The notes under the pieces are model-generated. The model was not told where the DNA came from. It saw nothing but the letters and a program-made list of their open reading frames with translations, and did not search any database. A stretch of DNA of 64,000 bases, from the NCBI GenBank assembly GCA_965198065.1, contig CBDAON010000004.1, positions 448,001 to 512,000 on the forward strand. The letters are read 5' to 3'. The translations under genes were made by a program, and so were the position numbers. How positions within the stretch are numbered: the first letter of the stretch is position 1; the number at the start of each line of letters is the position of its first letter. This document shows, one piece after another, positions 41,466 to 61,280 of the stretch. The stretch is from Longimicrobiales bacterium (lineage in GTDB: Bacteria; Gemmatimonadota; Gemmatimonadetes; Longimicrobiales; Gaopeijiaceae).

Positions 41466-44257
41466 GCAGCCAACCTCTCGTTCAACTCACCCAGCACGAC
41501 TGTGAGCTGGGCACCGAAGACCTGGTGCGCCTTCCCGAGCCCACCCATCTGACTGAAGGGCACCTCTTGGAAGTCGTCCTGCTCGATGCTCAGAGCATTC
41601 GCGATGTGGTCCTTGATGGCGTCTAACCAGAGTCCCTGCTCGGGCGTAAAGACTAAGCCTGTCGCCTCCTTCTCCCCTCTCCACTCCCGATACCGCGATT
41701 CAACTGTCTCAGCGACAGGCTCGAGGGGCTGCTCGGGTGTGATCGCGTGCTTTATGATGGCCACAAGGTCGACGAGGGCGTTCCCTCTTGCCCCTGTCAC
41801 GCTCTGGGGCTCTACGGCGGTGTACATGGACCAGAGCTGGTTGATAGGGTCGTGCAGGGACAGTGGCGGCTTCTTCAGTTCCTCAGCCAGTTTCTTGACG
41901 TGTCGGTATCGCAGACCAGCACGATACGGCCGAGAGTAGAGGATCTGGAGGGCTTCGATCTCGTCTTTGTTATCCTCGATGAACTGCCTGAAGTTGGCGA
42001 GCTTCGAGCGGGCGTCGTCGAGAGCGGCCTGATCATACTCAGCCCGTATCAATTCGTCCTGGGTGAGCTCGTCGATGACCTGTTCGAGGATCCGTCGGAC
42101 GTTCAGGATCGTGTCACGCAGCTCAGGCCGATGGAACGGCTTCAACGCCTCCGTCATCTCCTCGCGTTCGACCTTGGCGAGCTGCTTCTCAGTTGGCGCC
42201 TGTTCCTCGGTCAGATCGAACTTCCGTACGGTCAGCTCTCGCGTTCGGTCAGGATCGATACTGGCGAGGAGATTGGCTGCGAGCGTCCCCGGTTCGCTGC
42301 CGTCCGCCTGCTCCGCTATCTCGGATCGCTGCTCGTCTCCTATCTGCCTGTCGAGCCGTGTCAGCCGAGACGCTAGGGTCGAGACGATGTCAGCGTGGAC
42401 GATCCCTTGGGCAACCTGCTGGAGGATTTTGTCAAGCCCGACAGTCGGCTGCCGATCGAACGGCTTCGACAACGACTTGTCGTTCTCACAGACGCCAACC
42501 GCATCCACAACCACAAAGTGCGTCTTCTGCTTCGCGTCGGGCGTCACGCTCTGAAGGTCGTTGGGATTGATGATGCGTACCCCTCGGCCCTTCATCTGCT
42601 CAAAGTACGAGAGCGACCTGATATTCCGCATGAAGAGCAGGCACTCCAATGCCTTCACATCCGTGCCCGTCGCGATCATGTCCACCGTAACCGCGATGCG
42701 CGGGTTGAACGAGTTTCTGAATTGGGCCAGCAGGTCCTCGGGCGCGACACCCGTTGTCTTACTCGTGATCTTCTGGCAGAACTCGTTGCCCTTGCCGAAC
42801 TCCTCTCGGATGATATTGACGATATCCTCGGCATGGTTGTCGGTCTTGGCGAAGACGAGTGTCTTGGGGACTTCAGTGCGACCGGGGAAAATCTCAGTCG
42901 GAAGCCGGTCCCTGAAGGTTCGTACGACAAGTCGAATCTGATCTTCGGCGACCACATCGCGGTCGAGTTGGGTCGAGCTATAGGTGAGGTCATCCTCCAG
43001 TTCCTTAAGCGTCCGCTCCTTCGTGCGCCTATCTCGATGCGGCACGTAGGTGCGAGCACTGATCCGGCCGCCCTGCTGCGTGATTTTCGTATCGATGCGG
43101 TACACCGAGTATCCAACGTTCACCCCATCGGCTACTGCTCGTTCGTGCGAATAGTCCTGCACGACGTTGTTCTTGAAAAAGCCAATGGTCTGGGGCGTCG
43201 GCGTCGCTGTAAGGCCGATGGTGAAGGCGTCGAAGTAGTCGAGCACCTGGCGCCAGACGTTGTAGATCGAGCGGTGACACTCGTCCACTACAACGAAGTC
43301 GAAGGTCTCGATGGGCACGCTCGGGCTGTACTCCACGGGCACAGGGTCTTTCGTCGCAGGGCTGCCCGACTCGAACATCGAGCCCTCCTCGCGCTCCGCC
43401 TCGAACTCTTCGTCGCCCCTCAGGATTGCGTACAGCCGCTGGATCGTCGTGATGATCACCTTGCTAGCGGGGTCGATGGCGTTGCCTCTTAGGTGCTGAA
43501 CGACGTATTCGTTTGTGAAAGAGTCGTTCGTCTGGGGGCTGACGAACTGCTGGAACTCGTTCAGCGTCTGTCGGGCCAGGTTGTTGCGGTCCACCAGGAA
43601 TAGGATCCGCTTTGCCTTTCCAAACTTGATGAGGCGGTAGCAAAACGAGCACGCCGTGTAGGTCTTGCCGCTCCCGGTGGCCATCTGGATGAGTGCGCGC
43701 GGGCGGTTTGCCGCAAGGGACCGCTCTAGGTTCGTGATGGCTTCGCGTTGGACCGGCCATAGCCGCCCAGGCTCCAGCACCGGCATCTCGCGCAGGTTGC
43801 TGCGCAGTTGGCACTGGAGCTCTACCAACCGCTTCAGCTCCTCCGGACTGTGGAACGTGAAGACTTCTCGGCTCCGGTGGTCGGGGTCTAGGCCGTTCGT
43901 GAAGTGGGTGATCTTGCCCGTCGACTCATACGCGAACGGTAGGGGCAACCGGTAGTTCGGGATCCCCTCGGGGAGACCCTCGGTGTACCGTTTGGACTGG
44001 GGTTCGACGCCTCTCAGCGGATACCCTGCCGGCTTCGCCTCGACGACCCCGATCGCGCGTCCGTCGGCGTAGAGCAGGTAGTCGGCGGACCCAGTGCAGG
44101 TCTTCGCGCCTTCCTTCCACCTGAGCGGATACTCCCGAACAGCCACGCCGAGCCCCGCATGGATGTTCATGGACGTGAAGTCCTGAACCACCCATCCGCA
44201 GGCTTCGAGCTGCTCGTCGATCTCCTCGCGGGCTAGCTGTTCAGGAGTCAGTGGCAC
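41462..44257 (-). CDS. hsdR: Type I R-M restriction subunit
   Basis: ADY...VVEAK nuclease, MATGSGKT, DECHR, LTATP, QMKGRG. Confidence 0.93.
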   Translation of the reverse strand: MPLTPEQLAREEIDEQLEACGWVVQDFTSMNIHAGLGVAVREYPLRWKEGAKTCTGSADYLLYADGRAIGVVEAKPAGYPLRGVEPQSKRYTEGLPEGIPNYRLPLPFAYESTGKITHFTNGLDPDHRSREVFTFHSPEELKRLVELQCQLRSNLREMPVLEPGRLWPVQREAITNLERSLAANRPRALIQMATGSGKTYTACSFCYRLIKFGKAKRILFLVDRNNLARQTLNEFQQFVSPQTNDSFTNEYVVQHLRGNAIDPASKVIITTIQRLYAILRGDEEFEAEREEGSMFESGSPATKDPVPVEYSPSVPIETFDFVVVDECHRSIYNVWRQVLDYFDAFTIGLTATPTPQTIGFFKNNVVQDYSHERAVADGVNVGYSVYRIDTKITQQGGRISARTYVPHRDRRTKERTLKELEDDLTYSSTQLDRDVVAEDQIRLVVRTFRDRLPTEIFPGRTEVPKTLVFAKTDNHAEDIVNIIREEFGKGNEFCQKITSKTTGVAPEDLLAQFRNSFNPRIAVTVDMIATGTDVKALECLLFMRNIRSLSYFEQMKGRGVRIINPNDLQSVTPDAKQKTHFVVVDAVGVCENDKSLSKPFDRQPTVGLDKILQQVAQGIVHADIVSTLASRLTRLDRQIGDEQRSEIAEQADGSEPGTLAANLLASIDPDRTRELTVRKFDLTEEQAPTEKQLAKVEREEMTEALKPFHRPELRDTILNVRRILEQVIDELTQDELIRAEYDQAALDDARSKLANFRQFIEDNKDEIEALQILYSRPYRAGLRYRHVKKLAEELKKPPLSLHDPINQLWSMYTAVEPQSVTGARGNALVDLVAIIKHAITPEQPLEPVAETVESRYREWRGEKEATGLVFTPEQGLWLDAIKDHIANALSIEQDDFQEVPFSQMGGLGKAHQVFGAQLTVVLGELNERLAA

Positions 44258-44450
44258 GGGAATGCATTCTCTTTTGGGGTTGTTTCAGGAGCTCAAGGAT
44301 TCTTCGAGAGTCGGGTGCTGGGGCTGTTCGTGAGACGGACGAAGGGGGCGGGGAGTTGGGCCCCTGGAGGAGAAGCTGACGAATCTCGAGACGGCCACGA
44401 CGACGGCCGGCCTTGAGGTGACGACGCTGCTTCGCGAGCAAGTGGCTGGA

Positions 44451-44738
44451 TCACGCCGCCACAAAACTCTCCACCGCGATCTCCTCGGCGCGGCCGCGGG
44501 CCTGCCAAAGATCGTAGGCCATCTGCATCCCCAGCCAGGTCTCGGGCGTCGAGCCGAAGGCCTTAGACAGCCGTATCGCCATCTCTACCGAAACCCCCGT
44601 GCGCTCGTTCACCAACTCCGAAAGCGCCTGCCGGGTAACGCCCAACCCTTCGGCAGCACGGGTCACGGTCAGACCCAGGGGTTCGAGGCATTGCCGCTTC
44701 ACGATACCGCCCGGATGCGGAGGGTTGTGCATCGCCAT
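44451..44738 (-). CDS. higA: HigA antitoxin
   Basis: PPHPG, HTH, MAIRLSK, WLGMQ..YDL. Confidence 0.92.
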   Translation of the reverse strand: MAMHNPPHPGGIVKRQCLEPLGLTVTRAAEGLGVTRQALSELVNERTGVSVEMAIRLSKAFGSTPETWLGMQMAYDLWQARGRAEEIAVESFVAA

Positions 44739-44751
44739 GATCAGCTCCTCC

Positions 44752-45030
44752 TCAGTGATAATCCACGTAGTTCACATCGACCGCCGCGCCGTCCTCGAAC
44801 CGGAAGGTCACGCGCCAGTTGCCGGATACCGAAACCGCGTAGTGCCCCTTCAGCGGCCCCTTGAGTGCGTGTAACCGGAACCCCGGCAGACTCATGCCCT
44901 CCGGCCCCCGGCTGAAATCGAGTGCCGCCAGGATGTCCCGCAACCTGCCTACATGCTCCGGCGCGACTCGCTGTGCCGTCCTTCCCTCATAGAGCGCCTT
45001 CAGCCCCCGGTGGCGGAACGATGCAATCAC
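44752..45030 (-). CDS. higB: HigB (RelE-family) toxin
   Basis: SFRHRGLK, LHALKG, SVSGNWRVTFRF, DYH. Confidence 0.92.
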   Translation of the reverse strand: MIASFRHRGLKALYEGRTAQRVAPEHVGRLRDILAALDFSRGPEGMSLPGFRLHALKGPLKGHYAVSVSGNWRVTFRFEDGAAVDVNYVDYH

Positions 45031-45331
45031 TGCGGAATTCTAGTCCGTCGCCTGTCAAATGACAATTGGCGATCCCAGATGCGGTCGGTTCACACGGTAG
45101 TGCGGCGGCCTTCTCATTCGGACAGCTAACACCGGGGCTGATCCGCCACGATGCGTTCAGAACGTCGTTCCCTATCCCGCTCCCCAGCGGGTACGCGGCG
45201 CCGGGGCGCCCGAGCCCGTATGCAGCGGTAGCCGTTCGGGTCACTCCCAGCAACGGCAGCTTGGCGACCCTTTCCTCCGCGGGCTGCTAGGAGTCGCCAC
45301 AGCTTTGCGCGGCTCCCTCGGTGTACTTCAC

Positions 45332-45461
45332 GCGTCCGTTGGCGGAGCCCGGTCCGCCTCTAGTACGTCGCTGGAACACCTGGGACATCGCCTCTTTGCC
45401 CGTTGTTGACACAGCAAAAAGCAGCCTCCTCAATGTACGGGTATGGCGATTTTGACGGCCC
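45332..45461. repeat. ~130-bp non-coding repeat, copy B
   Basis: Collinear with 36356-36488. Confidence 0.8.
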
Positions 45462-45504
45462 AGTGTTCCGAGCGTCGGCGGGCGAGTTTGGCCGCTACGG
45501 CGGG

Positions 45505-45590
45505 AGAGCCAGCCTACCCTTTGGGGCCACGCTTCGCGGGTCCCCGGCAGGGGCTGGCGGGGGGCCGTGCCCCCTCTGACCCCCCCAACG
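45505..45590 (-). other. ColE1-like oriT; predicted nic between 45509 and 45508
   Basis: Minus strand GGGGGGTCAGAGGGGGCACGGCCCCC..., hairpin, GGGTAGGCTGG^CTCT; resembles the ColE1 nic CTGG^CTTA and lies in the same orientation relative to mbeC. Confidence 0.55.
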
Positions 45591-45600
45591 GCAACGGCAC

Positions 45601-45942
45601 ATGAGGGGCGCTGGACGCGACGTGTGGGTGAAGCTCCGCGCCAGCGAGGCGGAGCGTGCCGAGTGGCACGCGAAGGCGCGCTCTGCAGGGTTGACGCTGT
45701 CGGATCTGGTGCGCCGGTCGGTGGGCCGGGTGCGCACCTGGACCGTGGCGCACGCCGAGGTGGAGCGAGAGCGGACCCGCGAGCTGGCGCGGATCGGGGC
45801 GAACCTGAACCAGATCGCCCGCTGGGCCAATACCTTCAAAGCGAACGCCGAGACCGTCGAGATCGTCGCCCACCTGGTCGCCATCGAGCGGGCGCTCGCA
45901 GCGTTGGCCCCCGTCGTCCGCCCCGACGCCGATGCACATTAA
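45601..45942 (+). CDS. mbeC: MbeC/MobC relaxosome accessory protein
   Basis: RHH-like N-terminus; ELARIGANLNQIAR. Confidence 0.9.
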   Translation: MRGAGRDVWVKLRASEAERAEWHAKARSAGLTLSDLVRRSVGRVRTWTVAHAEVERERTRELARIGANLNQIARWANTFKANAETVEIVAHLVAIERALAALAPVVRPDADAH

Positions 45943-47431
45943 GTTCTTGGCCCGCGGAACCGGCTCGGCCCGGGAGGCGGCCGACTACCTCCTCGGGGTG
46001 CGGGACGCGACGGGGCAACTGCGCGAGGGCGTGGAGGTCCTCCAGGGGGATCCCCATCGGGTGGCCGCGGTGGCCGACGCGCTGGCGTTCGAGCACAAGT
46101 ACACGTCGGGCGTGATCGCCTGGGCACCGGACGACACTCCGAGCGACGCGCAGATCGGCGCGGTCATCGATGCCTTTGAACAGACGGCCTGGGCGGGGCT
46201 CGAGCCCGACCGCTACGCCTGGGCGGCCGTGGTGCATCGGGAGCGCGACGGCGGCGTTCACGTGCATGTCCTCGCCGCGCGATGCGACCTGGAGACCGGC
46301 CGGAGCCTCAACATCGCGCCGCCGGGCTGGCAGAAGACATTCGACCCGCTCCGCGACGCCTTCAACGCCGAGGAGGGCTGGAGCCGGCCGGATGACCCGG
46401 CGCGGGCGCGGGTGCAGCAACCCGGGCACCGCGCCTACGTCGAGGCGGCGCACCTGCGTGCCGGCCTCGCGCTCGAGCCCGCCCCCCGCGACCTGATCCG
46501 GGACTACCTGCTCCAGCGTGTCGAGCACGGCACGGTACGGAATAGGGCCGATATCGTCGCCGCCCTGCGGGAGGCGGGCCTGGAGGTGCCGCGCCAGGGC
46601 CAGGACTACCTGACGGCTCTGGATCCCACGACGGGGGACCGGTGGCGTCTGAAAGGAGAGGTGTACGCACATGACTTCAAACGCGAACGACTTGACCGAG
46701 CGATTGCGCAGACGGCTGGAGAGCGAACGCCAGGCGATCGAGGAATTGACCGCGAGCGAGCTCGAGCGGCTCGGCGCGAACTCCAGGCGCGTTGCGAGCA
46801 ACGCGCTACGTACCATCGAACGCAATACGGCGGTGGCGACCGGGCGGATGCGCGCGCTCCTGCTCAAGGCCTGGCTCCGGCCCCTGGTAGTCGGCCTGAG
46901 CCTCTGGCTCGGCATCTGCGGCGGGAGCTGGGCGACGCTGCACTGGCTGTCGACGCGCATCCAGGCCCGGATCGAGACGGCCGCCGCCCTCGACCTGGAT
47001 ATCGGGGAGGCACGCCAGACCCTGGCGCGGCTCGAGGCGACCACCTGGGGAATCGCGCTTCGGGAGATCGAGGGGGAGCGGTTCGTGGTGCTGCCGGCCG
47101 GCGCGCTCGCCTATCCGCCTTGGACCGTGGACACTCGGCCGGCCGTGAAGCTATCGAACGAGTGAAGGAGCTCTATGACCGCGTTAGAACAGCAGTTGAC
47201 GAAGGCCTTGCGGGCGTTGTCCGCGCAGTACGAGCAGGCGCAGCAGCAGCACGCCGCGCAGGTCGAGACCTTGCGGCGGCAGGTCGAAGCCTTGGAGCGG
47301 CAGGTCGCGCAGCTCAGCGGGCAAGCGACATACTTGGCCCGGGACTACAGGACGCTCGCCGAGACGTTGCGCGGGCGCTGGAGCTGATGCGCCAGCGGGG
47401 GCGAGAGCGCGATCATGGTCCGAGCCGCTAA
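45932..47431 (+). CDS. mbeA: ColE1-family (MOBP5-like) relaxase
   Basis: MHIKF..RGTG...DYLLG, KYTSGV, GL, VHRE..GVHVHV; tail ERDHGPSR. Confidence 0.88.
   Translation: MHIKFLARGTGSAREAADYLLGVRDATGQLREGVEVLQGDPHRVAAVADALAFEHKYTSGVIAWAPDDTPSDAQIGAVIDAFEQTAWAGLEPDRYAWAAVVHRERDGGVHVHVLAARCDLETGRSLNIAPPGWQKTFDPLRDAFNAEEGWSRPDDPARARVQQPGHRAYVEAAHLRAGLALEPAPRDLIRDYLLQRVEHGTVRNRADIVAALREAGLEVPRQGQDYLTALDPTTGDRWRLKGEVYAHDFKRERLDRAIAQTAGERTPGDRGIDRERARAARRELQARCEQRATYHRTQYGGGDRADARAPAQGLAPAPGSRPEPLARHLRRELGDAALAVDAHPGPDRDGRRPRPGYRGGTPDPGAARGDHLGNRASGDRGGAVRGAAGRRARLSALDRGHSAGREAIERVKELYDRVRTAVDEGLAGVVRAVRAGAAAARRAGRDLAAAGRSLGAAGRAAQRASDILGPGLQDARRDVARALELMRQRGRERDHGPSR
46671..47165 (+). CDS. mbeB: MbeB-like protein nested in mbeA in another frame
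   Basis: Coiled coil, TM segment, TWGI...RFVVLP as in ColE1 MbeB. Confidence 0.75.
   Translation: MTSNANDLTERLRRRLESERQAIEELTASELERLGANSRRVASNALRTIERNTAVATGRMRALLLKAWLRPLVVGLSLWLGICGGSWATLHWLSTRIQARIETAAALDLDIGEARQTLARLEATTWGIALREIEGERFVVLPAGALAYPPWTVDTRPAVKLSNE
47175..47387 (+). CDS. mbeD: MbeD-like protein nested in mbeA
   Basis: AAGGAG RBS; MTALEQQLTKAL..L..QY coiled coil. Confidence 0.78.
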   Translation: MTALEQQLTKALRALSAQYEQAQQQHAAQVETLRRQVEALERQVAQLSGQATYLARDYRTLAETLRGRWS

Positions 47432-48013: not shown

Positions 48014-51000
48014 TCATACGATACCCTCAAGGGCATAACGCCGATCCAGGTACGGGTGCGCAAATTGGTTGCGGTAGCTGCGCAGGCAACCGTAGCAGCT
48101 CGAGTCGCAGCCGCAGTTTCCCTGAACTCGCTGCCTCGCGTTGGCGAGTATTTCGTCGAATAGAATCTCCTGCTCCATTTGGGCCACCAGCCCGGCGCCG
48201 CCGGGCACGTTGTCGTACAGCACGATGGCGGACTCGCCGGGATTGGTTCCGACAGCGATCGTTACGTTCAGGTCCGTGTCCGGAACGTCCAGAGTTTCCG
48301 CCGCGCCGAGTAGCATCGCATACGCGACCGAATAAGCGGCCCACTCGCCGTGCAATCCCGAAAACTGCAGACGCACGACATCGGTCACCAGTTCGTGGCC
48401 CAGCGAGAACCGTCCCAGCGTCCCGCTGCATGGAGAGTCCGACGGTGAATTGTGCGTCGCCTTGGGCTCGGTCATATGCGCACCGCAAGAACGGCAGATA
48501 AGGAAACCCTCCCGCTTCCTGCCCTCGCAAAGGATAACGAGGGTCCCGGGTTGAGCCTTTGTTACCTGGACGCCGGAGAGGTACGTGGTTTCGGGTAGGT
48601 CATCGTCGTCAAAGCCTCGAAAGAACGGTCGCGTCGTATACAGGCGACGCGCTCGCCCGTGCGGCTCCTTCGGTTGCTTGAAGAGCGGCGTTACGAACCC
48701 GAACTCCGGTATCAGGTACTTTCGTACATTGGGCGGTGCGGTCGGATCGCCTTCGTTCCATTGCTTGAAACTGCGCGCGTCGTCGTATCGATAATGCCGA
48801 ACGGGCCATTCCTTACCGGAGACCTTCTTCACGCCGCAGGATTCCCACTCCAGTTTCCTGGCCACCACCTTGCCGCCGGGGGCATATTCGGCGATGGCCT
48901 GCGACAAATCCCGCTGGAGCGCAACGCCCGTGCGGTTGCCGTCCTGGGGACGAGTATCGAGTTCGACGACATCCACGGGAAACCCGTACTTCGGGATGAC
49001 CGCCTTGCGGGACAGAAAATTAAGCGTCTGCTCGCCGGCGATGGTCTTCATACGGGCTTCCACTCTGTTCGTGCCTTTGCGCCGGTTGAACAGATCCTGC
49101 CGGTGGCGCTCCATGTCGACATAGTCCGAGCACACTTCCATCTCCACGGCAGCAAGCCGACTGTCGGACCCCGCAACCTGCTCAGTCCATGTGTCCGCAG
49201 CGAGTCCGGTGCTCTTGTGCAGGAGCTTGGGAACGATCTCGCGCAGTGACGCCGCCAATGCGCTGTTGTTCTCGCAGAATGCCCTCAGGTCCAGCGTTGC
49301 GCGTGGGCTCTGCCAGTCCCCAACCAAGTCCTGTACACGGTTGAATCGCATGGCGTTGCTGCCGAATCTGAAGAAGGCGGACAGGGCGGTGGCCACCATG
49401 TGCCGTAGGACGATCTTCTCGTTCGTCAACCGCAGGCGCGGCGGGTGCACCGCGCCACGGATCACCCGATGTTCTGGATCTTCGTAGTGATACAGGTCAT
49501 GGGGATTCCGGCGGCAGTAGGTCAGAGCCAAGCCTGGCGTGGCCGCTCGCCCCGCCCGCCCCACGCGTTGCGTGTAGTTGAAGGGCTCCGGCGGCACGTT
49601 GCGCAGAAACACCACATCGAGATCGCCGAGATCGACGCCGACCTCGAACGTCGTCGACGAGCTGAGCAGGTGGATCTTGCCCTTCTTAAACCGGTCCTGC
49701 AGTCGGCGCGCCTCGTCGCTGTCAATCTGGGCGGTATGCTCTTCCGCGCTCAGCGCCGGGGGAAGGTCCAAGTCGTCGTAGAGAATCCGATAGTGATTCT
49801 CCTGGAGACGCTCCTGGTTGGCGGGCGTCAGGTCGCCCGGACAACCATTGCGGGGACAGACACCGCGGATGTTGTAGGTGCTCAGGGTTGCGCAGGTGCC
49901 GCATTCCCAGACTGCTGCGGGATGAGCGGGCTTGATGCGCAGCCAAACCGGATCGATCCGAAACGTCCCGTTCGCCGTTCCGCGCGAAAGGATCGGATCG
50001 TCCGGATCATGCCGCAACGCCGTCCACACCTCGTCCATGAGCCCGGTTGATTCCGACCGCTTCTGTTCCGCTGACAGGCCGGAGTCCGCGAGCAACCGGT
50101 CCAGGAAATGGCTGACGACTGCGGACTGAGGGCCGCCCCATTGCAGAACGCCCCGCCGCCTGCCTGGCGGTCCCTTGCAGTACGCCTGCTGTGGCCAAGG
50201 CGACACGTCGGACCATGCGAGCGACGGTCGTGGCGGCAGATTCATGGCTCGGCGCGGGCGCAACTCGTCCAGCAGGTAGCCGATCAGGCCGCGTGCCTCT
50301 TCCTCCTGGAAACTCCAGGGCGGGTGTAGCATGGATTGCGGCAAACGCAACGAATCTGGTATGGCAACGAACCACTTTACGAGGCCGACGCCGCTCAAGG
50401 ACAGCCTCCTTTCGTCCGTCACCGCCTCCCGCAGAATGGCGGTCAGCACCTTCCGGTTCCTGTCCTCGCTGGTGTCGGATGCCTTCAACAGGCCGGCGCG
50501 TTCCCACTGGACGAGCAAACGGCTCTGGAGATCGCTGATGGACATCCCCCCGCGGTCGACCGGCCCCGCCTTAATCGCCCGCAATATGAGGTTCCGGTCG
50601 CGCAGTTTCTCGTACGAATTCTCCGCATACCAAGCGAAGAACGCCGCCTCTTGGCGGCTGTCCGCGAATGCCAGCACCTTGCGCCGGGGCTCTGGGAGCA
50701 GTTCGTGCAGGGCGGTAGCGATAACAGCGTTCGGTCCGTCGGAGCCGTGCACGATCTCTTGTATGGGGTCGCCGATGCCGCCGCGCCGATACTGGCACGC
50801 CTCGCATCGCTTCATTTGATCGGCGTGGTCCTTGTGGTTCTCACACCGTCTCACGCGAACCGTCGCTCCGCATTCGCACGCCGGCGGCGAGCCCGAGAGC
50901 GCACCGCAGCGCCGACACAGAAGTTGGCCCCCGTCCTCAGCTGGCAGATAGTAGTCCACGCCGAAGTCCGAGTGGCTCGGATCGCGGATGGCCTCCCGAA

Positions 51001-52216
51001 GCATTCCATCCTGATTTCGACCGACGTAGTAGTGCTGACCACACTCCTTGCACAGGGCGATTTCCAACGGCTCTGCGGCGGTGCCATCCCCGGCTTGGCC
51101 CTTACGGTTCAGCACCACCGCGTCCGTGCCGTCTCTGTGCACCAGAAACGCCCCCTCGAGAGCGCGCAGAAAGGCGTGGTAGCGGCGCGGAGGCCCGTCG
51201 GCCGCCGCTACTTGCAACTCGCTGAAGACGATGCTGGGCGCGGAAAAGGACTCCCCGAAGAGTTCGTTGGCGAACTCGGCGACCGCGTGTCTGTCGGCCT
51301 CGCTCTTGCCTGAGGAGAGAGTCGCGCTCGTGGCGATGCAGCGAAATGGATCCCGCCGACCCCCGTCGCGCAACCGCTGCTTGAGACGCCGGATCAGCAT
51401 GCCCATCTCCATGCCCTTGGCGCCCCGGTACTGGTGCGCTTCGTCGAGCACGATGAACTGCCAGCGCTCGCCCCGGCCACTGTCAAACAGTGGGCTATCG
51501 TCGGGGCGGATGAGCAGGTACTCCAACATCGAGTAGTTGGTGAGCAGGATGTGGGGCGGAGCCTCGCGCATCTCGTCGCGGAAGATCATTTCTCCGGGAA
51601 GGCGGTTCTCGGCCCACCAATCAGCATTACGCCACTGGTCCCGGCTGTTTTTGGGTGTCTGGCCGATGTACTGCCCGAATGTAGGCTGGAAACCCGACCC
51701 TGCCTCGCGTAAACCCCAGCCGATGTTGCCCAACCGGTCGCGTTGGTCGTTGGCGAGCGCGTTCATCGGATACAGGATCATGGCCCGAACCCCAGGCTCG
51801 CGCAGTTGGCCAGCGAGATGCTGGCGATACAGCTCGAACAGGATCGGGTACAGGAAACTCTCGGTCTTGCCGCTCGCGGTGTCGGTGGCTACCACGATGT
51901 TGCGCTGCTTCTGATGGACGGCGCGGACGGCTCGCTCCTGGTGCACATACAGCGGAGCGTCGATCAGCGCCGGAAGCAGGTCGGTGGCGGTCTCGGGAAA
52001 GCACTCCCGCGCCAGCGCACGCGCGGCCAATCCCGTGCGGAAGCTCCGAGCCGATTCCAGATAGCTGCCCTTCAGCAGGCTTTCTTCCTCTTGCAGAGCG
52101 GCCTGGAACGAGGCGCGAAGGCCGGGATCCTTGAAGAAGAACGACGTCTTCAGATAGCTTTCGTAGCGCTGGCGAATCCTCTCTGGCCACGAGCCCATGT
52201 CGTGCACGTCAGCCAT
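48014..52216 (-). CDS. SF2 DEAH helicase with Zn ribbons and C-terminal DUF1998 (YprA/DruE-like), 1400 aa
   Basis: LYVHQ, SGKT, YPMNALANDQ, LLTNYSMLE, DEAH, TSAT, FADSRQ, TTFEVGVD, QRVGRAGR, LYDNVPGGAG, CxCxxSCYxCL. Confidence 0.92.
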   Translation of the reverse strand: MADVHDMGSWPERIRQRYESYLKTSFFFKDPGLRASFQAALQEEESLLKGSYLESARSFRTGLAARALARECFPETATDLLPALIDAPLYVHQERAVRAVHQKQRNIVVATDTASGKTESFLYPILFELYRQHLAGQLREPGVRAMILYPMNALANDQRDRLGNIGWGLREAGSGFQPTFGQYIGQTPKNSRDQWRNADWWAENRLPGEMIFRDEMREAPPHILLTNYSMLEYLLIRPDDSPLFDSGRGERWQFIVLDEAHQYRGAKGMEMGMLIRRLKQRLRDGGRRDPFRCIATSATLSSGKSEADRHAVAEFANELFGESFSAPSIVFSELQVAAADGPPRRYHAFLRALEGAFLVHRDGTDAVVLNRKGQAGDGTAAEPLEIALCKECGQHYYVGRNQDGMLREAIRDPSHSDFGVDYYLPAEDGGQLLCRRCGALSGSPPACECGATVRVRRCENHKDHADQMKRCEACQYRRGGIGDPIQEIVHGSDGPNAVIATALHELLPEPRRKVLAFADSRQEAAFFAWYAENSYEKLRDRNLILRAIKAGPVDRGGMSISDLQSRLLVQWERAGLLKASDTSEDRNRKVLTAILREAVTDERRLSLSGVGLVKWFVAIPDSLRLPQSMLHPPWSFQEEEARGLIGYLLDELRPRRAMNLPPRPSLAWSDVSPWPQQAYCKGPPGRRRGVLQWGGPQSAVVSHFLDRLLADSGLSAEQKRSESTGLMDEVWTALRHDPDDPILSRGTANGTFRIDPVWLRIKPAHPAAVWECGTCATLSTYNIRGVCPRNGCPGDLTPANQERLQENHYRILYDDLDLPPALSAEEHTAQIDSDEARRLQDRFKKGKIHLLSSSTTFEVGVDLGDLDVVFLRNVPPEPFNYTQRVGRAGRAATPGLALTYCRRNPHDLYHYEDPEHRVIRGAVHPPRLRLTNEKIVLRHMVATALSAFFRFGSNAMRFNRVQDLVGDWQSPRATLDLRAFCENNSALAASLREIVPKLLHKSTGLAADTWTEQVAGSDSRLAAVEMEVCSDYVDMERHRQDLFNRRKGTNRVEARMKTIAGEQTLNFLSRKAVIPKYGFPVDVVELDTRPQDGNRTGVALQRDLSQAIAEYAPGGKVVARKLEWESCGVKKVSGKEWPVRHYRYDDARSFKQWNEGDPTAPPNVRKYLIPEFGFVTPLFKQPKEPHGRARRLYTTRPFFRGFDDDDLPETTYLSGVQVTKAQPGTLVILCEGRKREGFLICRSCGAHMTEPKATHNSPSDSPCSGTLGRFSLGHELVTDVVRLQFSGLHGEWAAYSVAYAMLLGAAETLDVPDTDLNVTIAVGTNPGESAIVLYDNVPGGAGLVAQMEQEILFDEILANARQRVQGNCGCDSSCYGCLRSYRNQFAHPYLDRRYALEGIV

Positions 52217-54236
52217 TGGACACTTTCCGAAGGTTCTTCACGTTGGCCGGATGCACGCTGCGTCGACGTCTGTCGATCCTGATCGACCTTCGCGCTGCCT
52301 CGGTCGCGCTCAAGCCGATTGCGCGCAACTCTCCGCCGCTGAAGCCCTTGCCGGGTCGCCAGCCGCCACCCCCTCGCAGAACCTTGGCGACCGGTTGGCG
52401 GAACGCGGGGCGGACCAATGGCTTCGATATCGCTATAATTGCCGGCGGCGGGTCGGCGGGAATCCGGACCAAGGTCAGCGGCTTCTGACCGCGTCGGTCG
52501 TTGGACTGATCAAATCGGACGGTGAACAGGGCATCCTCGGTCAGGCGATGGTCGATCTGGACATGATCGACGAAGTGGGCTAGAGGCAATGTGAACTCAT
52601 CTTCCCTCCTCGTGTACTTGAGCCCCGGCTCGTCACCGAACCCCACGACAACCGACCTGATTGGCTTCGGTGATCGCAACCGCAGTATCTGGTTCGAGTC
52701 AGCGCGTTCCCGGAAATCGTGGCGCGTCATCTTGAACGGTGTGCTGCACCACTCGCCATCCCATTCGGTGCCTTCTCGCTCCATCCGCCACCAGATGCGC
52801 GGCAAATGCAAGGCGATGTCCACGCGACCGCCGTCGGCTTCTAGCGCACACGAAATCTCATCCACGTCGGGGTGCGGCTCGGCGATCAGACCGCCCATCC
52901 CGTCCTCCACGCCCGCCGCTCCTGGCGGCAGGGTGGCGTGGACTGGTACGCCATCGGCGCCGATGAACCGCACCGTTGTCGACGGATGGCCTGTCGCGGT
53001 CGGCACGAGCAGCGTGTCTCCGGAGTAAGGCTCTCCATTCAACCGAATCTCTCGAAGACCGCGCAGGTATCGGAACTGGGCACCATCCAGCATTGCCCCT
53101 TGCTCATCGTAGACGCGAAGGAAGAAGCGACCCTGCCGAGCGTCCATGACTTCGGCAAGGGTGCGCTCGGACGGTTTGAAATTACAGCCCTTCCAGCCGT
53201 GTGCGCCTTCCTCTCCGACCCGCGCCCAAACCACTCGGTCCGCATGACTCAGTCGCGGAGGAGTTCCCACGAATAGGTCACCCTCCTCGGAATCGTCGAA
53301 GACACGCTTTCCGCTCAACTTGAATCCGGGTGCGCTCGAGTCGATCTCACGCCCCGAAAAGCCGCCTTGCTCTTCCGTGGACTCGCTACCGTCCCGGAAG
53401 AAATAGTGCGCCATGAACGCCGAGTCGGAGCAGCCATCGGGTTCAACGGGCACATGACCCGAACGAACCAACTCCACCGGCGCGACCACGATGAAGTGGC
53501 CTTTCGTGAGACGGGTGATCTTGCGGCCATCCCCGGTCCAATCTTTGTTCAGCTTGAAGATCAGTGGGCTCTTGTCGAACAGGGAAACGTCGATCGGTGG
53601 GCCTTGCTCGAAGTCGATGGACAGGCGACCGGCGAACGACGTGAGAAGCCACCCTCCGTTCCCCAGGCTGAGCGGCTCACCGTTCTGCTTCACAGCTGCA
53701 ATTCGGGATTCTTCATCTGCGGAGAGCAGTACTTCCCACCGCACTGAACCCCAAGGTCTACGGCAGATAAGCTCCGGACGGGGCTTGGACGTTGGACGTC
53801 CTACACGAGTTCCTCCTCTTTCGTTTTCAATTACGGCTTTGGTCTGCGTCGGTCCGTCTCGTCTTCCTGTAATACTTCGGGGAGGTCGAAGCTCCGGCCC
53901 CTTGCCTTCCTTCCGCCGCTTCGAGGGAGCCGAGCTCTCGCCATCGGTCTTGCGATCATGCCCGTTGGCATCGCTCTTGCCGTCAGGAGTGGATCCGCCA
54001 TCGTTGGGTGAAGCACGAGAAGGCGAATTTCCTATTGCGAGTGGGCTTTCCGGCAGTGCCGGAGGCGATGTCGCCGATGGGCTTTCGCAGCTGGTCGACG
54101 GTGCTTGAGGCTCGGCAGACTCCGTCACGCCCTCATCGTCTGTGCTGTGAGAGGTCCAACGGAACAGCACGCGGCACAATAGGCGGCGCATCCACTTCCT
54201 GCCCTTTGCGAATACCCTTCTCAACACGTCACGCAA
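52209..54236 (-). CDS. Unknown 675-aa protein with C-terminal ribosomal eL13 (L13e)-like domain
   Basis: Long clean ORF overlapping the helicase start by 8 nt; C-terminal RPGKGFSGGELRAIGL...IRIDRRRRSVHPANVKNLR; start codon uncertain. Confidence 0.75.
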   Translation of the reverse strand: MRDVLRRVFAKGRKWMRRLLCRVLFRWTSHSTDDEGVTESAEPQAPSTSCESPSATSPPALPESPLAIGNSPSRASPNDGGSTPDGKSDANGHDRKTDGESSAPSKRRKEGKGPELRPPRSITGRRDGPTQTKAVIENERGGTRVGRPTSKPRPELICRRPWGSVRWEVLLSADEESRIAAVKQNGEPLSLGNGGWLLTSFAGRLSIDFEQGPPIDVSLFDKSPLIFKLNKDWTGDGRKITRLTKGHFIVVAPVELVRSGHVPVEPDGCSDSAFMAHYFFRDGSESTEEQGGFSGREIDSSAPGFKLSGKRVFDDSEEGDLFVGTPPRLSHADRVVWARVGEEGAHGWKGCNFKPSERTLAEVMDARQGRFFLRVYDEQGAMLDGAQFRYLRGLREIRLNGEPYSGDTLLVPTATGHPSTTVRFIGADGVPVHATLPPGAAGVEDGMGGLIAEPHPDVDEISCALEADGGRVDIALHLPRIWWRMEREGTEWDGEWCSTPFKMTRHDFRERADSNQILRLRSPKPIRSVVVGFGDEPGLKYTRREDEFTLPLAHFVDHVQIDHRLTEDALFTVRFDQSNDRRGQKPLTLVRIPADPPPAIIAISKPLVRPAFRQPVAKVLRGGGGWRPGKGFSGGELRAIGLSATEAARRSIRIDRRRRSVHPANVKNLRKVSNG

Positions 54237-55364: not shown

Positions 55365-56138
55365 GTGGCCCAGCAGACGGGAATCGAGTGGACAGACGCG
55401 ACATGGAACCCCGTCACTGGGTGCACTCGTGTAACAGAAGGGTGTGACAATTGCTACGCTGCCACCCTCGCCGCCCGACTACTTCGACAGGCTTACTTGG
55501 AGCGGGCCCCTGTGATCGACTCGGATATCACCCGGCGAGATCCATTCGCCGTTCGGCTGTGGCCTGAACGGTTATCCCAGCCTCTGAAGTGGCAGGATCC
55601 ACGGGTGATCTTCGTCAACAGCATGAGTGATGTGTTCCATGCCGACATCCCCACTGACTTCCTGCGCCAGACATTCGAGGTCATGCTCGAAGCCAATTGG
55701 CATACCTATCAGGTGCTAACAAAGCGTCCATCACGAGCCGCTCGATTCTGGCGCGAGAATTCAGACCTGTTCGGAGGTGACCCGATTCCCAGCCATATCT
55801 GGATCGGGACATCCGTAGAGCATCAAGATGTGGCCTACCGAGTTGGTCACCTCCGACAAGTACCTGCATGGGTCCGCTTCCTCTCCTGTGAGCCCTTGAT
55901 CGGACCGATTGAGCTGGATCTAAACGATATCGGATGGGTCATCGCTGGCGGGGAGAGTGGACCGGTCCGCCGACCCATGGAGCCTGCCTGGGCCCTGTCG
56001 ATCCGTGACCAGTGTCGCACTGCAGGTGTTCCATTTTTCTTCAAGCAGTGGGGTGGCCGCACGCCCAAGGCCGGCGGCAGGGAGTTGGACGGGAAGCATT
56101 GGGACGAGATGCCAGTGGTAGCGACTGCTGGCAAGTGA
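55365..56138 (+). CDS. DUF5131 / phage Gp37-Gp68 family (three-Cys, radical-SAM-like)
   Basis: IEWTDATWNPVTGC..V..GCDNCYA, FVNSMSD.FH, LTKRP, FLSCEPL, GGESG, FFKQWGG. Confidence 0.92.
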   Translation: MAQQTGIEWTDATWNPVTGCTRVTEGCDNCYAATLAARLLRQAYLERAPVIDSDITRRDPFAVRLWPERLSQPLKWQDPRVIFVNSMSDVFHADIPTDFLRQTFEVMLEANWHTYQVLTKRPSRAARFWRENSDLFGGDPIPSHIWIGTSVEHQDVAYRVGHLRQVPAWVRFLSCEPLIGPIELDLNDIGWVIAGGESGPVRRPMEPAWALSIRDQCRTAGVPFFFKQWGGRTPKAGGRELDGKHWDEMPVVATAGK

Positions 56139-56146
56139 GATGACGG

Positions 56147-57007
56147 TTGTCTGATTACAACTTTCTCGCAGGACTCACAGACGACGGGCTCTACACTCCC
56201 ACGATCAAGTGTCATTCGTTGCACAAGATCCAACTCCACAACTACTACGTGGAGTTGTTCAGTACCTCGATGAAGAGACAATGGCCCCAGCGGGCCTACC
56301 TCGGTCTCTGCTCTGGAGCGGGCCGGGCGAGAGTCGAGGAGACCGACGAAATAGTCGAGACGACGGCGATGTCCGCGGTTCGGGTTCAACATCCTTTCAC
56401 GAAGTACGTCTTCGTGGATAACGACCTCCGGTGCATTGAAGCCCTGAAGGGGCGGATTGCTGCATTGCCGGGCGAGCACGACTTCACGCTTCTCCTCGAA
56501 GACGTCAATTTAGCCGGAGAGAAGATCGTTGAGGCTATGCCAAGCTACAGTTCTGACCACAAGCTACTGTCCTTTTGCTTCATCGACCCTTTTTCTGCCG
56601 ACCTCAATTTCGACGTGATTAAGACCCTCGGGACCCGCTATCAGATGGACTTTCTTATCGTCCTGATGCTGGGTAGAGATGTCCGAACCAACTTCCGTCG
56701 ATACCTATCAGACCCGAGCGACACCAGAATCGCCTCTCTGATCGATGATCCAGATTGGCGGGAAGGGTGGGCTGGCAAGGGCCATGGGAGTCGGGGCTTA
56801 ATACGGTTTATTCTGGAAAAGTTCGACGAGGCGATGACTGGAATCGGTTATCGGGCTGCTCAACCAGATGACGCGCACCCGATCAGAGTTTTTGGAAAGA
56901 ACGTCTTCCTCTATTCATTGGTCTTCTATAGCAAGAATCCGCTCGGCCAGAAGTTCTGGCAGGCCACTCGTCGCGGGACCCATCCACAGATGACCCTCGG
57001 CATCTAA
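56147..57007 (+). CDS. tcmP: Three-Cys-motif partner protein (TcmP-like methyltransferase fold)
   Basis: HS..K..L..Y, YLGLCSGAG, FCFIDPF, YSLVFYSK; directly after DUF5131. Confidence 0.8.
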   Translation: MSDYNFLAGLTDDGLYTPTIKCHSLHKIQLHNYYVELFSTSMKRQWPQRAYLGLCSGAGRARVEETDEIVETTAMSAVRVQHPFTKYVFVDNDLRCIEALKGRIAALPGEHDFTLLLEDVNLAGEKIVEAMPSYSSDHKLLSFCFIDPFSADLNFDVIKTLGTRYQMDFLIVLMLGRDVRTNFRRYLSDPSDTRIASLIDDPDWREGWAGKGHGSRGLIRFILEKFDEAMTGIGYRAAQPDDAHPIRVFGKNVFLYSLVFYSKNPLGQKFWQATRRGTHPQMTLGI

Positions 57008-57174
57008 AGAGAGTGGCCCAGAATCATCCCAGACGGTCCCGGCTCCACCGCGTTGCTCCCTAACTGGTGGTCGACGACCTGATGCGAGCTTTCCGGTACG
57101 GCGGATCCCGTTCCCTGGCGTCTCTTCGAGCCGCAGGAGTCGCTCGTGCTTCGTTGTCAGGCGTGCGCCGTCCA

Positions 57175-57297
57175 GATGAGGTCACGCGCGCCGACGTGAT
57201 CGAGATCCTCACTCCGATCTGGCACACCAAGGCGCCCACGGCCCAGTGTGTACATCACCGCACCCGAACTGTGTTAGAATGGGCCGTGGCGATGGAG
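57175..57297 (+). pseudogene. P4-type integrase internal fragment
   Basis: EVTRADVIEILTPIWHTK...VLEWAVAME. Confidence 0.75.
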
Positions 57298-58512
57298 CTA
57301 CGTGCCCTTCGGTTCTTGACGCTCGCCAGCCAGGTAGCTCGCCCAGTCCTCCATGAGTCGGCGCCGCCGCTCGAACAGGTCCGTGCGCCGATAGGCGGCC
57401 TCGACCTTGTTCTGGACGACATGCGCCAGCGCCGCCTCCACGACCTCGCGGGGATGATCCGTATCTTCGGCCGCCCAGTCCCGGAAACTCGACCGGAACC
57501 CGTGCGGCACAGCCGCGATCTTTAACTCCCTGAGCAGTTCCGACAGCGCTGTGGTCGCAATGGGGTTTCTGCGCAGGCCTGGAAACACGAGCGGGCTGCC
57601 GCGATCGAGCGCCCGCGCCTCCTCGAGGATCTCCAGCGCACGCCGGCACAGCGGGACCCGGTGCTCGCGCGCCGCCTTCGTGCGTCGGGCCGGGATGATC
57701 CACGCACCCTCGCCCCGGTCGATCTCCGTCCAGAGCGCCCCACGCACCTCGCCGGAGCGTGTCGCCGTCAGCACCAGGAACTCGAATGCCAGCTTCACGA
57801 CCGGCCGCGCGTTCGACCTCCGCACCGTCTCGATCGCCGCCGACACCTGGCCGTGCGGCAACGCCCGCATGTGTCGAACGACGCCCCCCTGCGAACCGAG
57901 CACCGGGCCGATCCGGTCGCACGGGTTGTCGGGCCGGAGACCCATCGCCACCGCCCACTCCATGACCGCGCGGATGCGCTGGCGCAACTTCCGGGCCGTG
58001 GGCGGCATGTCGTGCCAGATCGGAGCGAGGATCCCGATCACGTCGGCGCTCGTCACCTCCGAAATTGGCATCTTCCCGATGCGAGGAACAGCGTAGCGCT
58101 CCAGGCTGCTCAGCCAGAGCTGCGCATGCTGGGGGGAGCGCCAGCCCGGCCGCAGCTGGTTCCAGACCTGCCGGGTCGCGTCCGCGAAGGTGGGCGTCGA
58201 CTCGACCCGCCGCTTCTCCGACAGGGGATCGCCTCGCTCGCGGGCGAGCTTCCGGTTGGCGAACGCCTTCTCTCGGGCTTCCTTCAGCGAGACCAGGGGG
58301 AATCCGCCGAGCCCGAGCTCGGTTCGGCGGCCGCGGATCGTGAGGCGCTGGATCCAGCCCCGGCTGCCCGAGGGCCGCACATCGAGATAGAGGCCCTGGC
58401 CGTCACAATAGCGTCCGGCCTGGCTCACGTTGCGCACGAAGGCAGGCGTCAGGGCGTTGTTGGGATGCCGTCTGCGCGGCTTGCGTTGCGGGGGTCGCTT
58501 GGGGGGTGTCAT
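57298..58512 (-). CDS. P4-like tyrosine integrase, intact
   Basis: Arm domain, TATRSGE, PHGFRSSFRDW, LAH, AAY.R. Confidence 0.93.
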   Translation of the reverse strand: MTPPKRPPQRKPRRRHPNNALTPAFVRNVSQAGRYCDGQGLYLDVRPSGSRGWIQRLTIRGRRTELGLGGFPLVSLKEAREKAFANRKLARERGDPLSEKRRVESTPTFADATRQVWNQLRPGWRSPQHAQLWLSSLERYAVPRIGKMPISEVTSADVIGILAPIWHDMPPTARKLRQRIRAVMEWAVAMGLRPDNPCDRIGPVLGSQGGVVRHMRALPHGQVSAAIETVRRSNARPVVKLAFEFLVLTATRSGEVRGALWTEIDRGEGAWIIPARRTKAAREHRVPLCRRALEILEEARALDRGSPLVFPGLRRNPIATTALSELLRELKIAAVPHGFRSSFRDWAAEDTDHPREVVEAALAHVVQNKVEAAYRRTDLFERRRRLMEDWASYLAGERQEPKGT

Positions 58513-58698
58513 ACCTACCAATATATCCACCACAGATTAGCGGATGCAAGGGTATGGAGCGGATCGGTATGGGACAGGAGAGATCCTTATGCATCGTGAT
58601 AAGTCAATATAAACAAGTCAGTTATATGCGTTATGGGACTTGGCTGGACGAGATGGCTATTCCCAATATGGCTGCCCTCCGGGAAGGGTGCCAGCGCG

Positions 58699-59418
58699 AT
58701 GCTGAAACCCGCGACGCTCGTACTCGTGGGCCTCGCTTCGGCGGCCGCCATCGCTCACGCGTTCCGGGCGCCGTTCCCCGGCCCCGGCGGCAACCCGGTG
58801 CTGGACTTGATCGCCTACCACGATCCGGGCTTCCACACGGTGATCCGAGTCTGGTACTACGTGGCGCCCGCCGTCGCCGTGGTGCTCTTCGGCAGCCTCG
58901 GCCTCTCGGTCTGGAGAGTCTGGCTGCAGCCCCGGGCGGGAGGAGGGCGCAGGGGCACGTTGCCACCCTGGCCCGCCTCGCCCGAGGACGAGGCGCCATC
59001 GCTGGTGATCGGCGAGCTCCACCATACCGTCGTCCCGCGAGAGAGAGAGCGGCCGTCCTGGCTCGTCGTTCCCGAGACGGGGCTGTATACGGGCGTGCTC
59101 ATCGTCGGGGCCGTCGGCTCCGGCAAGACATCGGCCTGCATGTATCCGTTCGCGCAGCAGCTCCTCTCCTGGCAGGCCGACCGGCCCGGGCGCCGGGCCA
59201 GCGCCCTGGTGCTAGAGGTCAAGGGCGACTTCTGCCATGACGTGCGCCGGATCCTCGAAGGCGCCGGGCGCGGGGACGACTACCTGGAGATCGGCCTCGG
59301 CGGCGCCTGGCAGTGGAACCCACTCGACGATCCGCTGCTCGACACCTATTCGCTCGCCTACAGCGTCGCCTCCCTGATCAACCAGCTCTTCGGCAAGAGC
59401 CGAGAACCGTTCTGGCAG
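58699..59418 (+). pseudogene. Second VirD4-like gene, N-terminal third
   Basis: Highly similar to 9435-11471 up to EPFWQ, then broken. Confidence 0.88.
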
Positions 59419-59419
59419 C

Positions 59420-59613
59420 GACGACAACCCCTTCTCGGAGGCGCACTTCAAGACCGTCAAATACCACCCCAACCTGAACGCTTCGTGCAGGGGATCCCCA
59501 CGCCCCAGCCTCTCCCAACGGAGGTCTGGATCAATCCACCAGCTGCGGCTCCAACACCGCAGCCTGCTCACTAATTTATGACTCCGGGTGTCTCATTGCT
59601 GTTGACAGGTTCC
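59420..59613 (+). mobile_element. Internally deleted 3' end of an IS3-like element
   Basis: DDNPFSEAHFKTVKYHP / PERFVQG...VWINPP, then TGTCTCATTGCTGTTGACA end-like sequence. Confidence 0.65.
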
Positions 59614-59790
59614 GTCGGGATCGATATGGCAAAGCGCAGCTTTCCAGTACACGGGGCGAAGGCGGACGGGTCGGTAGCATATCGGAGGAAGCTGAGCCGG
59701 GGAAAGTTGCTGAATTTCCTCGCCTCGCAGCGGCCCTGCACGGTGGCGATGGAGGCGTGTGCGAGCGCCCACTACTGGGGCCGACAGATT
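59614..59790 (+). pseudogene. IS110-family transposase N-terminal fragment
   Basis: GIDMAKRSF.VHG...VAMEACASAHYWGR. Confidence 0.85.
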
Positions 59791-59912
59791 GTAAGGCACG
59801 GAGCAAGAACCGAGATGGCAATCGGTCGAGACCCCGTGTATTCTGCGAGTAATGCCACAGTCCAGCCCCTGGAATCACATTAGGTGATCGCTATGGCCCC
59901 TTGGGAAATCCG

Positions 59913-60968
59913 ATGAGCCGTTACCGAACGATGATCAAGATGTCCGCACTATTGGTGGGTCTGGTCTTGGCGTCGGGTTGCGGTGGCAGAGACAGCACCA
60001 CGGCGCCGGAGCCAGTGTCCGATCCGCCTCGTCCCACGACGATCGCGGTGAGCCCATTCGCGGCCGAGCTAACTGCGTTGGGTGAGACCGTACAGCTGAC
60101 AGCGGAGGTTCGGGACCAGAACGGTAGGGTGATGACTGGCGTGACCGTGACGTGGACCAGCAGCGACACATCGGTGGCCACCGTCTCCGAGGGCGTTGTG
60201 ACAGCCGTCCGAGGGGGCAACGCCACGATCACGGCAAGCTATGAGGAGCACACGGTCGAATCGATGATCTCTGTGTGGATTTCCACGCTCAGCGAGTGGT
60301 CGGTGCGTGTGCTGTATGTCGTGCCCGCGGACAAGGAGTTCCGCAATGACTACAGCGACGGCCTCTCCAGGGCGATCGTGGATGTCCAGGGGTGGTACCG
60401 CCGGCAGCTCGACGGCCTAACGTTCGACATCTACAGCGTCATACCGGAACAGTGTCACCTCCCCGGAAACGAGGAGTACTACAGCCGCGTCGACCCCTGG
60501 CAAAAGGTCCTGGACGATGTCCAGTCCTGCGCGCCGGTGGTGGCAGGGGTATCTGTGACCGATCTGATTCCGCGCGATGGGCCGCTCCCTGGCAGCTCCC
60601 GGTTTACATGGTTGCTCTATATCGACGTGGTCGAAGTCTGCGACGGACGCGAAGGCCAGGGGTTTGGGGCGGGGTGGGACGGCGTTGCCATGATGGGGAG
60701 CGGGGATCTGGAGGGTTTGTCGAATCCAGGGCCGTACTCCGCTTGTGATGGAGGACCGTGGGAAGGGACTCTTGGCCGCTGGATGGGGGGAACCGCCCAC
60801 GAACTCGGGCACACGTTCTTGGTGCCGCATCCGCCCGGATGTGAGGAAGGATTGCCAACGTGCGACTACCCAGCCCTGATGTGGGATGGGTATGGCAGCT
60901 ACCCGGACACCTATCTACGCGACGACGAGAAGGCGATTCTGCGGCGGTCGCCGTTCATCAAGCGTTGA
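59913..60968 (+). CDS. Lipoprotein with BIG2 domain and metzincin-like metalloprotease
   Basis: ASG-C lipobox, WTSSDTSVATVS, AHELGHTFLVPH, ALMW Met-turn. Confidence 0.82.
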   Translation: MSRYRTMIKMSALLVGLVLASGCGGRDSTTAPEPVSDPPRPTTIAVSPFAAELTALGETVQLTAEVRDQNGRVMTGVTVTWTSSDTSVATVSEGVVTAVRGGNATITASYEEHTVESMISVWISTLSEWSVRVLYVVPADKEFRNDYSDGLSRAIVDVQGWYRRQLDGLTFDIYSVIPEQCHLPGNEEYYSRVDPWQKVLDDVQSCAPVVAGVSVTDLIPRDGPLPGSSRFTWLLYIDVVEVCDGREGQGFGAGWDGVAMMGSGDLEGLSNPGPYSACDGGPWEGTLGRWMGGTAHELGHTFLVPHPPGCEEGLPTCDYPALMWDGYGSYPDTYLRDDEKAILRRSPFIKR

Positions 60969-61260: not shown

Positions 61261-61280
61261 CTGTGCGGAGAAGAATCCCC

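Follow-up and report, generated by a model that had tools for sequence, protein, structure and literature searches.

Druantia III, the closest described relative of the locus studied here, pairs the protein DruH with the YprA-type helicase DruE. DruH has an N-terminal helical domain, six immunoglobulin (Ig) domains and a C-terminal helical domain, and single-stranded DNA is bound between Ig5 and the C-terminal domain (10.64898/2026.05.12.722862). The N-terminal domain contains a putative exonuclease site and the C-terminal domain binds the DruE stalk (10.64898/2026.05.13.724313), while the Ig-like domains have been proposed to sense phage proteins (10.64898/2026.05.12.724681). DruE of E. coli and Pseudomonas acts on DNA and the cell is not killed (10.64898/2026.05.13.724758, 10.64898/2026.05.13.724313); the mycobacterial DruHE pair interacts directly and causes a late collapse (PMC13316683). 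Bell et al. 2025 (PMC12458937) described a Druantia III-like branch that mostly lacks a nuclease, and type III-B consists of DruH and a compact DruE without PLD domains (10.64898/2026.05.13.724758). Here, we describe a helicase gene and its upstream partner gene from a Longimicrobiales bacterium (Gemmatimonadota; GenBank assembly GCA_965198065.1), located in a 64,000-nt stretch, hereafter the window, of contig CBDAON010000004.1 (positions 448,001 to 512,000). Judged from its sequence, the pair is likely an anti-phage module. The partner protein ends in a ribosomal eL13 (L13e) domain that is swapped for other domains elsewhere in the family.

The helicase carries DEAD, Helicase_C and MZB domains in one chain (Pfam), with motifs II (DEAH) and VI and the MZB domain intact (Table 1). 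Its best PADLOC matches were DruE1 (E 1e-150) and DruE3 (E 6e-142), those to DrmA and DpdJ being more than 120 orders of magnitude weaker, and its best PDB match was 9tu7 (E 1.6e-72). It ends 22 residues past the MZB cysteines (22-39 in 32 of 32 relatives), compared with 413 in E. coli DruE, and therefore lacks the PLD region. In a quick helicase tree, which carries a long-branch warning, the family grouped as a single clade (SH-aLRT 100), with the Clostridium and G006 helicases next to it. Table S1 of PMC12458937 lists the helicase of locus L012, 69% identical to that of the window, as Type III-B-like, together with the Clostridium and Nostoc helicases, and on this placement the window helicase belongs to the III-B-like clade. 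BREX-like genes (Lon-type and PglZ-type, by inspection) were seen in G006 (L063:12465-18959, minus strand), upstream of the outgroup III-B-like pair.

Pairing of the two genes is conserved. Searches returned 201 partner relatives among 8000 candidates (the best 120 of 201 listed) and 1379 representatives at E<=1e-30 in a profile search (the best 150 of 1379 listed), not all of which need belong to the family. The 43 genome loci came from metagenome-assembled genomes of Acidobacteriota, Gemmatimonadota, Rhodothermota, Pseudomonadota, Chloroflexota, Latescibacterota and others. The helicase lay directly downstream of the partner in 40 of the 43, and 25 of these 40 shared the 8-nt overlap seen in the window (ATGGCTGA), which likely couples translation of the two proteins. 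The three exceptions are L008, with no helicase within 4.9 kb, L011, at a contig edge, and L030, which is truncated. With shadow open reading frames (ORFs) of the pair set aside, any third gene was shared by at most 4 of 44 loci. The distribution is patchy: of 401 genomes from the window's phylum, 9 gave a helicase match at E<=1e-40, near-full in three of them, and 4 matched the tail profile.

The partner has an Ig/fibronectin type III (Fn3)-like core, as indicated by its predicted structure and a fold search. Neither of the helical end domains of DruH is present: residues 24-141, where the N-terminal (exonuclease) domain would stand, are disordered in the model, and the C-terminus is eL13 rather than the DruE-binding domain. 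The short N-terminal helix has a family median hydrophobic moment of 1.90, against 1.45 in shuffled sequences, and is transmembrane-like in 5 of 197 proteins. The window partner also lacks an extra C-terminal beta domain of ~75 residues that most relatives possess, and it matched no PADLOC family. Tandem duplications affect the whole core in P0123, part of it in P0204 and the extra beta domain in P0152. The nearest outgroup helicase is preceded, in the DruH position, by a 1053-aa gene, and profile-profile comparison aligned 134 colinear columns of the partner core with it; the score of 29.7 (E 0.012) exceeded those of all 20 shuffles, the best of which reached 25.0. Together, the gene position, the Ig-like core and this one weak colinear match make descent of the partner from DruH likely. 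DruH itself (9tud) was not among the fold-search rows for the partner, although the libraries may not contain it.

A sequence-only reading of the stretch had described a 675-aa ORF overlapping the start of a 1400-aa superfamily 2 helicase by 8 nt, and had taken the two for a Druantia III-like pair with no nuclease or methylase partner. The layout, the homologue neighbourhoods, the DruE matches and the lack of a third conserved gene all bear this out. Its further suggestion of a new defence system is not supported; Table S1 of PMC12458937 already files the helicase clade under Druantia III-B-like, and the partner's position and Ig-like core are those expected of a reduced DruH.

The last 66 amino acids of the partner include 16 Lys/Arg and 3 Asp/Glu residues. 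They match profiles PF01294 and NF008914, at 54 bits and thus below the 96-bit equivalog cut-off of NF008914, and fold as the eL13 core, with the closest solved match from the archaeon Pyrobaculum calidifontis (40% over 63 residues). The domain is fused rather than a stand-alone ribosomal protein and is the only eL13 copy in the genome. Across 243 tail segments of the family, the G-F-S, E, D, R-R, H and N positions of eL13 are 96-100% conserved and its RNA-type basic residues are retained. We predict that the tail binds RNA or single-stranded DNA. A true eL13 domain has been kept under strong conservation across many bacterial phyla; the sequence-only reading had named this domain correctly, as profile and fold searches both confirm, and had suggested it as a putative nucleic-acid sensor or loader, but overlooked that it is only one of several exchangeable tails. 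Stand-alone bacterial relatives were also noted: a 66-aa eL13-like ORF in G388 (L071:1489-1689, minus strand), directly after a molybdo-dehydrogenase FAD subunit-like gene (by inspection), and two eL13-like clusters in the Atlas (76 and 89 aa; scores 0.89 and 0.87) that serve as leads only. Because such proteins exist, the archaeal route of eL13 may be indirect.

Tails were examined in 248 partner-family proteins, the window helicase (P0002) and the repeat protein P0124 being left out. A profile built from the family's own eL13-type tails matched 205 of the 240 proteins whose core reaches its end. Alternatives were identified by Pfam among 33, 24 and 32 selected proteins and comprise uS17 (P0120, L036), uS5 (P0181), bS6 (P0022 above cut-off, P0027 weakly and four more by likeness) and NusB inserted ahead of eL13 (P0005, P0032). 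A 1756-aa protein (L038:8687-13957) joins the partner to a NusG-like domain (weak, E 0.003) and then to a whole SNF2 helicase (DpdE/ZorD-like), and two others (L041:7388-11461, L043:7427-11476) combine N-terminal sigma70 regions 2-4 and 1.2 with a divergent eL13 tail. The uS17, bS6, uS5, NusB, NusG and sigma70 domains are all nucleic-acid binders. Short or absent tails occur as well. Tail changes were followed on a FastTree phylogeny of 284 cores, truncated rows and some duplicate P and L rows included, which was rooted on L041/L043 as was the helicase tree. On this tree, eL13 is the root state and its presence changes ~30 times, truncations counted, while the two proteins with uS17, each placed closest to eL13 carriers, are separated by 2.0 substitutions per site. 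Genome G401 has a uS17 of its own in addition to the fused copy, and the two are 55% identical.

Several side observations concern these tails. L041 and L043 hold the earliest-branching partners, and their sigma70 part matches PADLOC MzaA. In the branch nearest to the window protein, 12 rows (L002:9605-12127, L003, P0007, P0008, P0013-P0018, P0020 and P0023) have their eL13 domain interrupted by an insert of ~65 residues, and in P0019 and P0021 a domain similar to this insert forms the tail alone. Recurring tails that lack a Pfam match include, by inspection, a basic coiled hairpin, two helix-turn-helix-like types, and HARE-HTH-like and zinc-ribbon-like ends (L013, L019, L021, L032-L034, L039; P0161, P0168, P0170, P0183, P0196, P0204, P0205, P0211, P0215, P0217 and P0219).

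We propose, at what we regard as an even chance of being right, that the module is a nuclease-free helicase of the Druantia III-B lineage with a probably DruH-derived partner, whose exchangeable tail is a nucleic-acid grip that places the helicase on the invader. The two proteins would be made together, and the Ig-like core would dock on the C-terminal half of the helicase. A complex prediction for partner residues 150-675 and helicase residues 930-1400 scored 0.59 against 0.00 for the best of three controls, with runs agreeing in at least 60% of contacts and a partner pLDDT (predicted local distance difference test) of 78. The mark applied let through 116 of 157 solved pairs and 2 of 215 mismatched ones, although only 18 of the 157 solved pairs reached it at 0.60 or below, as did both passing mismatches (of 215). 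Likeness to the solved DruE-DruH complex may contribute to the score, and the prediction, which specifies no interface, lends weak support to the docking. The basic tail would then take the place of the surface, formed in DruH with the C-terminal domain, that binds single strands. The ribosome and the transcription complex are the sources of the identified tails, so binding would most likely be to RNA-containing structures at sites of gene expression, such as nascent RNA, R-loops or open bubbles. The helicase would load on the exposed strand and unwind it 3' to 5', as measured for DruE, so that phage replication is stalled or the DNA is passed to host nucleases, no dedicated nuclease being involved. 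Lineages that switch tails would thereby change what is gripped.

A number of observations weigh against this proposal. Deleting either DruH's N-terminal or its C-terminal domain abolished defence (10.64898/2026.05.12.722862), and both are absent here; with domains reported as essential missing, the known mechanism cannot carry over unchanged. The outgroup match that ties the partner to DruH has an HH probability of 3.5%, the partner core profile did not match E. coli DruH or the Clostridium and Nostoc partners, and PADLOC matched nothing but fused domains in 16 partner-family members. Other DruH-position proteins, though, also fail to match one another in profile comparison. Not every tail is an obvious RNA binder: P0240 ends in HhH (E 0.007, NusA-like by inspection), P0024 ends in a MacB_PCD periplasmic domain, and several other tails had no Pfam match among the selected proteins scanned. 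A full-length frame is absent from 8 of 40 helicase genes, one of them at a contig end, and the GxGKT-type Walker A motif of the window copy is not intact (G112D). At codon 112, contigs with near-identical DNA from runs X2, X3 and X8 carry the letter for Gly, and the Asp letter occurs in run X1, possibly the source sample, in a single contig at depth 3.5. A double Gly mutant of the Walker A motif abolished E. coli Druantia III defence (10.64898/2026.05.13.724758). Asp112 may impair the window copy of the helicase, though not the family.

The tail could instead be an integrated decoy, a bait mimicking host proteins bound by phage antiterminators, anti-sigma factors or translation hijackers, whose binding trips the helicase. 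Phages target Nus and sigma factors, and the identified add-ons come almost only from gene-expression machinery. Gain of uS17 on two such distant branches, the repeated changes in eL13 presence and the proposed sensing of phage proteins by DruH Ig-like domains (10.64898/2026.05.12.724681) fit a decoy, and so does retention of the host uS17 in G401, but its identity to the fused copy is loose for a mimic. Further, eL13 is an archaeal and eukaryotic ribosomal protein (PMC9932298, PMC11354259), and there is therefore no bacterial ribosomal eL13 for a phage to attack; yet no tail is commoner, and it is also the inferred ancestral one. It has kept its RNA-type basic residues, and no eL13-tail match was found in the phage collection. 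We consider a decoy unlikely on this balance.

Less probable again is a role outside defence, or an incidental tail: the helicase module would serve a mobile element or repair, and its C-terminus would simply tolerate fusions. YprA helicases include repair enzymes, neighbouring genes are not conserved, many copies are decaying, and the MacB tail and the short or absent tails fit it, but the helicase falls within the Druantia branch, eL13 is retained with near-invariant residues across deep branches, and random fusion should not draw its domains again and again from a single functional class. Slightly less probable still is that the tail is built into or clamped on the host ribosome or elongation complex, which the helicase strips or stalls upon infection to arrest growth, since, although whole uS17, uS5, bS6 and NusB domains could fill native sites, the late collapse caused by mycobacterial DruHE would fit and the output must be mechanical or borrowed where no nuclease is encoded, we know of no eL13 site on bacterial 23S rRNA, and the DruE proteins of E. 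coli and Pseudomonas work on DNA and leave the cell alive.

A wider reading goes beyond the nucleic-acid grip, and we hold it as possible but doubtful. An immune family would have exchanged both Druantia nucleases for a plug-in slot of gene-expression parts, taking eL13 from archaea first and then uS17, uS5, bS6, NusB, NusG, NusA-like or sigma70 domains, and this slot would watch transcription-translation complexes and trip the helicase, either luring phage take-over proteins or docking on the ribosome or RNA polymerase. If so, the family would be a bacterial counterpart of the integrated domains of plant NLR proteins and a rare recruitment of an archaeal ribosomal protein into bacterial immunity. 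Through tail swapping, domains borrowed from gene expression would serve bacterial immunity as interchangeable grips or sensors. The family is a natural experiment: the scaffold, from which the DruH helical domains and the PLDs are gone, stays the same, while a single slot exchanges one small domain of known structure for another, and it bears on what DruH senses and how nuclease-free III-B stops phages, questions raised by the 2026 papers.

The surroundings of the module in the window are a mobile mosaic (Table 1), with a tyrosine integrase (by profile), part of which is repeated as a small inverted copy. The adjacent DUF5131 and TcmP genes are divergent from the module and not conserved beside it elsewhere.

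Table 1. Positions of the gene pair, its parts and the surrounding genes in the window.
Feature	Position	Strand	Description
Partner gene P0001, 675 aa	52209..54236	-	Reduced DruH-like protein with eL13 tail; start codon uncertain
N-terminal helix, residues 2-24	54165..54233	-	Helix in predicted structure; amphipathic rather than transmembrane
Disordered linker, residues 24-141	53814..54167	-	pLDDT <50 in model; length varies across family
Conserved beta-rich core, residues 150-600	52437..53789	-	Ig/Fn3-like sandwiches
eL13 (L13e) core domain, residues 613-675	52212..52400	-	Profile and fold matches
Stop/start overlap, 8 nt, ATGGCTGA	52209..52216	-	Partner end and helicase start
Helicase gene P0002, 1400 aa	48014..52216	-	Compact DruE-type YprA/SF2 helicase without C-terminal nuclease domain
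Walker A codon 112, Asp	51881..51883	-	Gly in 32/32 full-length relatives
MZB (DUF1998) zinc-binding domain, residues 1298-1378	48083..48325	-	PF09369, E 5.8e-14; four cysteines intact
Mosaic intervals	17463-23147, 26882-33551, 57067-59883		VirB4-like gene and repressor (inspection), integrase, several IS3-like copies in direct and inverted orientation, truncated coupling-protein- and transposase-like frames
Restriction-modification and mobilization genes	38449-47431		Type I restriction-modification (M, S, R), HigBA-like pair, MobC/relaxase-like genes; R and S by profile, others by inspection
DUF5131 and TcmP pair	55365-57007	+	Matches PADLOC candidates PDC-M41/M30
Lipoprotein-like ORFs	59901-63198	+	Two or three, with repeated Ig-like units

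Borrowed domains have precedents in other systems. NusA-like S1-KH, L12/ClpS and SmpB-like OB domains occupy variable slots of conflict systems in which decoys have been proposed (PMC7159879, PMC11090510). PMC7159879 and PMC12839542 supply precedents of borrowed domains and decoys in conflict systems other than Druantia. The systems of Kaur et al. 2020 and the CoCoNuTs share the use of borrowed housekeeping domains with our family and differ in their core enzymes, MoxR-vWA and McrBC. The available text of PMC7159879 and PMC11090510 contains no eL13, uS17, uS5, bS6 or NusB tail on a YprA partner. The terms 'L13' and 'ribosomal' are absent from the available text of PMC12458937, PMC13316683, 10.64898/2026.05.12.722862, 10.64898/2026.05.13.724758, 10.64898/2026.05.12.724681 and PMC11090510, and 'L13', 'ribosomal' and 'DruH' from the text and supplements of PMC12458937. 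No description of a fusion of eL13 to a helicase partner was found in the literature searched, which did not cover bioRxiv supplements.

Compared with ribosomal eL13 (PF01294, NF008914), the family tail shares the core sequence and fold, lacks the eukaryotic extensions and is fused to a bacterial multidomain protein. DISARM, Dpd and ARMADA have in common with the window helicase a YprA helicase with DUF1998, but here helicase and DUF1998 form one gene rather than a split DrmA/DrmB, and no methylase, SNF2 helicase or PLD gene is conserved near the family pair. Druantia III-A (E. coli, P. aeruginosa) shares the gene order and the helicase core with MZB, and probably the Ig-like array of the partner. 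The window helicase is 27.6% identical to E. coli DruE and differs from it in lacking the PLDs, with 391 C-terminal residues missing and gaps of 84, 38 and 37, and the partner differs from III-A DruH in lacking the N-terminal exonuclease and C-terminal helical domains and in having no detectable sequence match to it. With Druantia III-B, the family shares a PLD-free DruE-type YprA helicase, a single upstream partner and the restriction to two genes. The III-B partners compared are ~1050-1100 aa, whereas family partners are mostly 500-1000 aa, about a quarter to half disordered, and end in a ribosomal or transcription domain. Layout and engine are those of Druantia III and the helicase lies in the III-B clade, while the partner lacks both DruH end domains. 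Relative to the catalogued III-B systems, whose helicase clade was already known, the family differs in a partner that ends in an exchangeable ribosomal or transcription tail.

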